This document shows, piece after piece, positions 5,912 through 6,908 of a DNA stretch of 45,626 nucleotides; within the stretch, counting starts at the first letter, position 1, and the number at the start of each line of letters is the position of its first letter. This stretch comes from a virus (lineage: Duplodnaviria > Heunggongvirae > Uroviricota > Caudoviricetes): the IMG/VR virus record IMGVR_UViG_2579779076_000011; one strand, written 5' to 3'. The notes under the pieces are model-generated. The model searched no databases and was not told the origin of the DNA. It was given only the letters and a program-made list of their open reading frames with translations. A program made the translations under genes and the position numbers.

Positions 5912-6373
5912 ATGAGTCGTTTGCTGATTAACGAAAACCCCCTTCAGGTCCTGCCCACGTTGGCATGCACTATAGGGTTGAATGAAGCCATCGTTCTACA
6001 GCAAATCCACTACTGGCTGAATTCATCTCAAAATTTCTTCGAAAATCGCCACTGGGTGTACAACAGTGTGACCGATTGGCAAGAACAATTCCCGTTCTGG
6101 AGCGAGTCGACAATAAAACGCGTGCTGGCCAATCTGGAAAAATTGAATGTGGTATTTACTGGGAACTTTAACAGTGATGCCTGGGATAAAACCAAGTGGT
6201 ATTCAATCAATTATGCCCAGTTATGTAAGATTGAAGAGACAACATTCCCTGTGGCCAATCGATTAGGTCAAGTTGACCCAATCTCTTACAGAGAATACAA
6301 CAGAGAGTACTACAGAGATAAAAGATCCCCCTTACCCCCAAAAGGGGGAGGGCGAGGAAATCATTCTCGCTGA
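5912..6373 (+). CDS. replication initiator / replisome organizer, N-terminal DNA-binding part (frame 1 of a split gene)
   Basis: ATG 5912 follows the upstream stop at 5907-5909; N-terminal region resembles phage replisome-organizer N-termini; the ORF ends at 6373 inside a homopolymer-rich palindrome. Confidence 0.5.
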   Translation: MSRLLINENPLQVLPTLACTIGLNEAIVLQQIHYWLNSSQNFFENRHWVYNSVTDWQEQFPFWSESTIKRVLANLEKLNVVFTGNFNSDAWDKTKWYSINYAQLCKIEETTFPVANRLGQVDPISYREYNREYYRDKRSPLPPKGGGRGNHSR

Positions 6374-6908
6374 CGCTCAAAAAGCTCTGAACTACTACAA
6401 CGAGAAAGTCGGTACACGCTGCCGCGATGTTAAACCGTTTGTCATGCTGCTGACTGCCACCACCACCCGCGCTGGTTACAGCGTGGCTGAGATTCAGTTA
6501 GTAATTCGTTGGGTTATTGCGACATGGCGCCGTCGTAGCGGAAGCGTGCCGAAACCTGCGAACATTTGCCGCGTAAACCGGTTTGACGGATATCTGGCTG
6601 ACGCTGAGGCGTGGGCCACTGCTGAGGCTGCCGTTGACCCTGCTGAAGTTGTGAAGAGCTACAACGAGATTCTGGGCGACCTGCTACCTATAGCTGAAAT
6701 TGATACTGACCGCCGTCGGGCAATCCTGCGCCTGCTGGCACATATGCGCACGCAAACTCTTGGCGCATTTATCGGCTACTTCGAAAAATTCCGCGATAAC
6801 GCCCCAGACTTCTATTTCGGCGGCGAATATCGCACCGGCTGGCGGGCAGGGTTTGATTACCTGATGAAGCCAGAAACACTGCGTAAAACCAGGGAAGGGG
6901 CATTATGA
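6273..6908 (+). CDS. replication initiator C-terminal part (second frame of the split gene)
   Basis: Overlaps the previous ORF by 100 nt in another frame; the C-terminal segment resembles the conserved C-terminal domain of phage replication proteins; ends 4 nt into the helicase gene. Confidence 0.5.
   Translation: MTQSLTENTTESTTEIKDPPYPQKGEGEEIILADAQKALNYYNEKVGTRCRDVKPFVMLLTATTTRAGYSVAEIQLVIRWVIATWRRRSGSVPKPANICRVNRFDGYLADAEAWATAEAAVDPAEVVKSYNEILGDLLPIAEIDTDRRRAILRLLAHMRTQTLGAFIGYFEKFRDNAPDFYFGGEYRTGWRAGFDYLMKPETLRKTREGAL

Follow-up and report, generated by a model that had tools for sequence, protein, structure and literature searches.

Why should a phage replication-initiator gene be read in two frames within a prophage that otherwise looks complete? 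The question is raised by positions 5912 to 6908 of IMG/VR virus record IMGVR_UViG_2579779076_000011, a sequence of the Caudoviricetes whose full 45,626 nt are called the window here. An earlier account made from the letters alone (the sequence-only reading) described two overlapping open reading frames (ORFs), placed the split of the gene at a palindrome of C5 and G5 runs and offered three explanations: a sequencing or assembly indel, a genuine inactivating frameshift, or a slippage-prone site. The alignment to orthologues which it proposed for locating the frame change has now been carried out and leads to a 68-nt deletion at 6274-6283. It is almost certain that this deletion is genuine, arose between repeats (iterons) within the gene and caused the split. 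To the whole reading, in which the repeat deletion also cost the initiator its function, we assign a probability of roughly 0.85. The argument turns on the following features.

5912-6373, plus strand: 5′ initiator fragment, ATG start, 153 aa
5912-6283, plus strand: authentic N-terminal domain (putative origin-binding winged helix), residues 1-124, 100% identical to residues 1-124 of the intact protein of Escherichia coli RM10042
6284-6370, plus strand: out-of-frame 29-residue tail of the 5′ ORF, SYREYNREYYRDKRSPLPPKGGGRGNHSR, followed by the stop at 6371-6373
6267-6908, plus strand: 3′ initiator fragment (linker and C-terminal domain) in frame +1, stop at 6906-6908
6265-6280, plus strand: sole remaining iteron AGGTCAAGTTGACCCA, dyad GGTCAA-G-TTGACC, a hybrid of iteron 1 (left) and iteron 4 (right)
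6274-6283, plus strand: deletion junction as located by the alignments, a 10-nt microhomology TGACCCAATC common to iterons 1 and 4
6281-6326, plus strand: A+T-rich tract of 46 nt adjoining the iterons, 33% GC as against 50% for the gene
6288-6318, plus strand: 12-nt repeat ACAGAGAATACA, 2.6 copies within the A+T-rich tract, encoding the linker LTENTTESTTEIKD in the intact frame
6327-6352, plus strand: C5/C5/A4/G5 palindrome, encoding PPYPQKGEG in the 3′ frame and conserved in intact genes

The arrangement of the two plus-strand ORFs is as first described, with an exact overlap of 101 nt where about 100 nt had been reported, and their frames differ, (6273-5912) mod 3 being 1. The 3′ frame is open from 6267, directly after the TAG at 6264-6266. 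Its sole candidate start is the TTG at 6273, which yields an ORF of 211 aa (6273-6908) whose stop overlaps the start of the downstream helicase gene (ATGA).

The view that these ORFs are a DNA-binding-like N-terminal and a replication-protein-like C-terminal half agrees with profile searches and with a structural model. Among PHROG profiles, the 5′ ORF matches phrog_6493 (‘DnaD-like helicase loader’, 7.7e-42), phrog_11233 and phrog_428 (7.5e-21), and the 3′ ORF matches phrog_1347 (1.4e-50), phrog_428 (‘replication initiation protein’, 5.4e-47) and phrog_345 (‘replication initiation O-like’, 1.8e-18). The intact RM10042 protein matches phrog_428 at 2.2e-72 over residues 4-353, and the halves found in the window match the corresponding parts of it. 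An AlphaFold (AF2) model of residues 1-120, built with 35 homologues, reached a pLDDT of 83 and a pTM of 0.74. Every one of its best fold matches in the PDB is a winged-helix DNA binder, 4pql and the Rep-DNA complex 5kbj among them, at weak scores (E 6e-3 to 4e-2, TM 0.5-0.6). The N-domain is 55-60% identical to the N-termini of Staphylococcus and Bacillus phage proteins named ‘DnaD-like helicase loader/replication initiation protein’, and the last ~83 residues of the 3′ ORF share 40% identity with the C-terminus of P22 protein 18. Pfam returned no family at E <= 0.01 for either ORF and none at E <= 1 for the intact homologue; NCBIfam matched neither the two halves nor the intact protein, and a sequence search of the PDB gave nothing meaningful. 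Judged by these comparisons of sequence, both ORFs belong to a single phage replication-initiator gene, one half each.

Intact versions of this gene are available. A megablast search of 5,426 complete E. coli genomes with the 997-nt query retrieved 24 prophages which cover it in full at 97.7-99.8% DNA identity. The matched stretch is longer than that of the window in 24 of 24 (1065 nt in 20, 1077 nt in three and 1020 nt in one), so that the intact alleles exceed it by 68, 80 or 23 nt. All 24 are annotated as a single coding sequence (CDS), named either ‘hypothetical protein’ or ‘replication protein RepO’. These alleles, such as that of RM10042 (WP_039264487.1), lie among the same neighbours as the gene in the window (repressor, Cro-like gene, YdaT, 74-aa ORF, initiator, helicase), but differ from it in that they are read in a single frame of 1065, 1077 or 1020 nt and hold four iterons, or else two without loss of frame.

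Aligned with the intact alleles, the window lacks exactly 68 nt (23+22+23), that is, three of four tandem repeats. Tandem Repeats Finder (TRF) describes the repeats of the intact gene as 4.3 copies with a period of 23; the four AGGTCAA..TGACCCA copies start at gene positions 354, 377, 399 and 422 with periods of 23, 22 and 23, and each carries the dyad GGTCAA-N-TTGACC. The copy left in the window combines the ‘GT’ of iteron 1 at its left with the ‘TCTT’ flank of iteron 4 at its right, and the crossover therefore falls within the 10 nt that iterons 1 and 4 have in common. No second copy exists in the 45.6-kb window, even when up to three mismatches are allowed. Because 68 is 2 mod 3, everything downstream of the junction is in frame +1. 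The protein alignment agrees: frame 1 follows the intact protein through ...GQVDPI (residue 124), frame +1 follows it from ...TQSLTEN to the end, and about 22 residues are missing between the two.

This places the lesion 44 nt upstream of the C5/G5 palindrome, where the sequence-only reading had seen the split; that location did not hold, the sole difference in the alignment being the one at 6274-6283. The palindrome itself, CCCCCTTACCCCCAAAAGGGGGAGGG, is present at 6327-6352 as quoted. It is a conspicuous element: the window holds one copy of CCCCCNNNNGGGGG where 0.02 would be expected, and the predicted folding of 6315-6375 amounts to -24 kcal/mol (z = -3.15). No base of the window differs from the intact E. 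coli alleles over the aligned stretch 6284-6420, which takes in the palindrome. In diverged single-frame genes, the block ATCCCCCT(A/T)ACCCCCAAnnGGGGGA keeps its run lengths and varies at two central loop positions only. Its carriers are the Stenotrophomonas phage BUCT708 (different N-domain, C-domain 71% identical), Enterobacter sichuanensis, Serratia quinivorans (different C-domain) and E. coli CFSAN061769 (different N-domain). Since the palindrome is identical in the intact alleles and its run lengths are conserved, it is not the lesion, and an indel or slippage event at this position is ruled out by the same run lengths in intact alleles and diverged homologues. Of the three explanations first offered, the genuine inactivating frameshift is thus retained, without the site and cause at the C5/G5 runs that had been attached to it. 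As far as this conservation tells, the palindrome is a feature of functional genes which lies within an overlap created by the upstream lesion. It may be a third element of the origin, or may simply encode PP.PQ.GE. The case also carries a caution, as a conspicuous homopolymer palindrome in an overlap of ORFs is not necessarily the site of the frame change. A second predicted hairpin (the GCGAGGAA-ATCAT-TTCTCGC region) directly follows the palindrome within 6327-6372, and the -24 kcal/mol given above is for the two together; this pair may be an element of the origin.

The same stretch could be invoked for recoding, in which +1 ribosomal frameshifting at CCC-C/CCC-U, or transcriptional slippage, would join both halves into a functional initiator. 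The direction of such a shift is the one needed, frame 1 (UCC CCC UUA CCC CCA) offers both a CCC-U and a CCC-C, and the predicted hairpin lies downstream of these sites; CCC-C is known as a +1-prone tRNA-Pro site (PMC7577736). We nevertheless give recoding almost no chance. The identical sequence is found in single-frame alleles and in diverged homologues and hence has not been selected for recoding, the recent upstream loss of 68 nt explains the split, and the two-frame arrangement is conserved in no orthologue examined, whether close or distant. Furthermore, a fused product would still meet an origin with a single iteron. Transcriptional slippage, for its part, needs longer runs than these 4-5 nt to be efficient. 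A slippage-prone site is thus unneeded to account for the structure of the locus, and survives only as possible +1 slips at the level of translational error.

Assemblies typically go wrong at tandem repeats, and the real DNA might hold four iterons in one frame, with 68 nt lost through repeat collapse or a mis-join. In keeping with this, the 33-mer that spans the junction was not found in species-representative genomes, in IMG/VR or in JGI metagenome contigs, nor in any of the 24 full-length matches from complete E. coli genomes. Several observations speak against such an artefact, which we hold to be extremely unlikely. The exact junction recurs in a separate Logan assembly: over 6,636 nt, which take in the deletion, contig SRR24257648_5 (L011; 47.5 kb, five samples) matches the window at 100% identity. 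The iterons share at most 16 identical bases, a length at which a k=31 graph would not be expected to collapse, and the k-mers spanning the junction do not exist in the intact allele. Positions 1-8340 of the window align with RM10042 at 99.9% identity with no gap besides the 68-nt one, and no other gene is broken. On the same grounds, namely the shared junction and the lack of any other gap in 8.3 kb, the sequencing or assembly indel first considered is disfavoured. We therefore take the deletion to be real.

The abundance of the deletion allele has to be read with some care. The exact 211-aa product is found on 21 Logan contigs, and the resulting figure of ~20 assemblies with the deletion is an upper bound, as contig L012 is an intact allele cut at the contig end for which the same product was called. 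Iteron 4 of the intact alleles (L006, ~1922-1937) includes an ATG in frame, AGGTCAAAATGACC, with AGG ahead of it; when the ORF is started there, its 211-aa sequence is exactly that of the TTG-initiated ORF of the window, which confuses look-ups of the exact product. In principle, the ATG could permit internal initiation of a protein consisting of the C-domain only. The exact 153-aa product is absent from the records, probably because an ORF overlapped in this way is discarded by gene callers; in the Logan annotation no N-terminal gene was called.

What the loss of three repeats means depends on what the repeats are. We read them as origin iterons embedded in the gene, and as probable binding sites of the initiator, because the layout resembles ori-lambda and because the repeats co-vary with the N-domain. 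Relatives within the N-domain family (Klebsiella phage vB_VIPKPNMC05, Serratia, Enterobacter, Trabulsiella) carry three to six GGTCAAAATGAC-type repeats, spaced by ~23, 45-46 or 69 nt. Genes which join another N-domain to the same C-domain have unrelated repeats (BUCT708, with a 24-nt unit, and CFSAN061769). The homology between CFSAN061769 and the window starts at 6284, right after the last iteron, and N- and C-domains have been exchanged independently among the relatives. The adjoining A+T-rich tract is presumed to be the DNA-unwinding element of the origin.

In the phage collection, megablast gave as its sole match the 58-nt segment of iteron and A+T-rich tract; it was tblastn and the collection of E. 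coli genomes that supplied the informative relatives. In Klebsiella phages and in many prophage genes of E. coli, this segment (6262-6319, the last iteron and the ACAGAGAATACA tract) recurs at 88-89% DNA identity; the latter are annotated as ‘conserved phage C-terminal domain-containing protein’, and the flanking coding sequence is otherwise dissimilar. By this pattern, 6262-6319 behaves like a common joint at which N- and C-terminal modules can be exchanged. The C-domain encoded in the window does not match Pfam Phg_2220_C, and the BUCT708 homologue reaches E = 0.18, below the gathering score. A Klebsiella phage relative with the same N-domain matches Phg_2220_C at 9.6e-18 and represents a different C-module.

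In lambda, the origin lies in the middle of gene O, where iterons of hyphenated symmetry stand beside an AT-rich tract, and the O protein binds DNA with its N-terminal part and the P protein with its C-terminal part (PMC6022878, PMC3349717, PMC7466680). The intact gene shares with O and ori-lambda the plan of a two-domain initiator with a linker, and four dyad iterons followed by an AT-rich tract in mid-gene. It differs in showing no detectable sequence homology to O (no match to Pfam Phage_rep_O), in the sequence of its iterons and in its downstream partner, a DnaB-like helicase instead of the P-type loader of lambda. The window itself retains the two-domain initiator, the A+T-rich tract and the downstream helicase gene of a lambda-type module, whereas the roughly four mid-gene iterons are found in the intact alleles and have dwindled to one copy in the window. 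Genes 18 and 12 of P22 present the same order as the window, with an initiator gene directly before a phage-encoded DnaB-like helicase, but are unrelated to it in N-terminal domain and repeats. The P22 origin reportedly lies inside gene 18. RepA_N-type plasmid initiators (4pql, 5kbj) and DnaD-like phage initiators resemble the N-domain, the fold matches being weak as noted; their C-terminal domains differ, and Pfam DnaD and RepA_N gave no match. In functional terms the module is of the lambda O/ori-lambda and P22 18/12 type; by sequence it belongs to PHROG 428 and not to the lambda O family. To our knowledge, this replication module has not been studied experimentally so far.

These comparisons suggest the following course of events. 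The intact module comprises, in order, the winged-helix N-domain, four iterons of 22-23 bp, the A+T-rich tract, the G+C-rich palindrome and the C-domain, followed by the DnaB-like helicase gene. In the window, the direct repeats misaligned within the 10-nt TGACCCAATC, whether by slippage during replication or by recombination over a short homology, and 68 bp were removed. The shift to frame +1 leaves an N-terminal fragment of 153 aa that ends in a nonsense tail, and a C-terminal frame orphaned behind a weak TTG start; one of four iterons remains after the same event. By analogy with lambda, the domain that binds the origin would be uncoupled from the one that interacts with the helicase, and an origin reduced to one iteron would be unable to fire. 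On this analogy, the prophage is most likely replication-defective and kept passively by vertical inheritance.

Precedents exist among the lambda mutants. Loss of ITN4 by the 24-bp ori98 deletion nullifies O complementation, and the small in-frame ori deletions r95 and r96 in the AT-rich region block replication initiation and phage yield (PMC6022878). The sequenced r mutants of lambda (the r93, r95, r96, r98 and r99 series) are in frame and were selected in the laboratory, whereas the deletion in the window is natural and shifts the frame. We regard the event as a natural counterpart of the classic ori-minus ‘r’ deletions of lambda with a frameshift in addition, and not as a new mechanism.

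A phage that still replicates with a functionally split initiator has also to be considered, the N-terminal fragment acting together with a C-terminal fragment translated separately from TTG 6273. An AGG at 6265-6267, 5 nt upstream of this codon, would provide a weak AGG-N5-TTG start. The intact state of the remaining prophage and the presence of the allele in several read sets would both fit, and a few ORFs limited to the N-domain (92-150 aa) do occur among 65 species-representative loci. However, the N-domain is fused to a C-terminal extension in 57 of these 65 homologous loci and in all close relatives, the median length from the start of the N-domain being 252 aa (six-frame ORF lengths). 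A protein search with the 120-aa N-domain gave only proteins of ~100-210 aa and missed the 354-aa E. coli protein, and its lengths were not used. Moreover, such a split would separate the binding of the origin from the recruitment of the helicase, one iteron is left out of four, and the N-terminal gene is the one that the Logan gene caller did not find. We consider a functional split very unlikely. That the two ORFs are normally separate overlapping genes, the outcome which the sequence-only reading had named as contradicting its view, is ruled out by the structure of the orthologues, which have one uninterrupted gene (a single CDS in the close alleles, fused in 57 of 65 loci).

Some observations weigh against a loss of function through the repeat deletion. 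The rest of the prophage is fully intact and the allele is present in ~20 read-set assemblies, a pattern that a variant still capable of growth might show as well. Traces of fused protein could arise if ribosomes slip by +1 at CCC-C/CCC-U (6329-6338) at the rate of translational error. The roles of the repeats as origin and of the N-domain as their binder are argued from analogy and co-variation, and a two-iteron, in-frame allele exists in E. coli HY220605, so that reduced arrays are perhaps tolerated. Finally, the window may itself derive from a Logan read set, which would weaken the independence of the second assembly.

Other alleles indicate how readily the array changes. In HY220605 (L008), 45 nt comprising two iterons were lost in frame, and the resulting 1020-nt gene is annotated as RepO. 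ETEC1738 (L007) and two others gained 12 nt, one ACAGAGAGTACT unit, in the A+T-rich ACAGAG repeat tract, which gives a gene of 1077 nt. An independent loss of 23 nt, removing iteron 1 between CCAATCGA direct repeats, is seen in Logan contig SRR25641936_35 (L014, 2501-3542); this allele breaks elsewhere than that of the window and is likewise split, into overlapping ORFs of 128 and 226 aa. With 23-nt, 45-nt and +12 variants at the same place, the array is a hot spot of slippage and deletion. Because its units measure 23, 22 and 23 nt, the loss of one or three of them shifts the frame and the loss of two does not.

The window covers almost a whole prophage, collinear with the RM10042 prophage that lies next to tRNA-Ser/mtfA. 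When 57 RM10042 prophage proteins were compared with it by tblastn, about 50 were found, free of stops over the matched length and mostly full length; the initiator is the only split gene among these. The lesion is therefore isolated and presumably recent. It is an instance of ordinary prophage decay at a repeat-rich origin, an ordinary route to lost replication. For annotation, the two ORFs should be treated as one disrupted initiator gene, in a prophage that is probably unable to replicate despite looking complete. Beyond this locus, the repeat array at intact-gene positions 354-437 is the likely origin of a widespread replication module, found in prophages of E. coli, Enterobacter, Serratia and Klebsiella, and the allelic series of +12, -23, -45 and -68 amounts to a natural dissection of that presumed origin.

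A link to clustered regularly interspaced short palindromic repeats (CRISPR) was also noted. In Logan contig L012 (SRR23294247_3270), positions 1-60 run from the type I-E CRISPR repeat of E. coli, TTCCCCGCGCCAGCGGGGATAAACCG, straight into iterons 3-4 of the intact allele. The 32-nt spacer TTGACCCATGCGCTAAGGTCAAAATGACCCAA stands between repeats in annotated CRISPR arrays of seven complete E. coli genomes, and the prophage was found in none of these seven. In the phage, the protospacer (iterons 3-4) is preceded by AAG, which we take to be the canonical type I-E protospacer-adjacent motif. The 68-nt deletion removes the protospacer and the 23-nt and 45-nt ones do not. One could thus speculate that the deletion was selected and not neutral, the array being a built-in fragile site through which the prophage escapes CRISPR self-targeting, replicative killing or both; we consider this unlikely. 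If it were true, the loss of an odd number of repeats would disable origin and initiator in one step and immobilise an otherwise intact prophage; this prophage carries cargo useful to the host, the PD-T4-3 defence gene at 14544-15395.

The genes around the initiator mark the region as the early-right operon of a lambdoid prophage, with the helicase as the partner of the initiator. The upstream part of this context spans 4368-5909; its genes, the helicase and two genes from farther along the window are as follows.

4371-4760, minus strand: cI-like repressor, intact
4880-5110, plus strand: Cro/YdaS-like gene, intact
5169-5645, plus strand: YdaT-family gene, intact (Pfam YdaT_toxin 2e-15)
5685-5909, plus strand: 74-aa ORF, intact
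6905-8296, plus strand: DnaB-like replicative helicase, intact (Pfam DnaB_C 2e-69, DnaB 5.8e-07), 100% identical to the RM10042 protein
13228-14463, minus strand: 411-aa HNH_2-domain protein
14544-15395, minus strand: PD-T4-3 anti-phage defence gene, 283 aa (PADLOC 6.9e-138; Pfam GIY-YIG)

A YdaS-like protein in the position of Cro and a YdaT-family protein in that of cII correspond to the Rac-type ydaS/ydaT arrangement. The last two genes of the list belong, together with several ORFs without family assignment, to an accessory segment of ~7 kb (12484-19625) which is absent from the RM10042 prophage.

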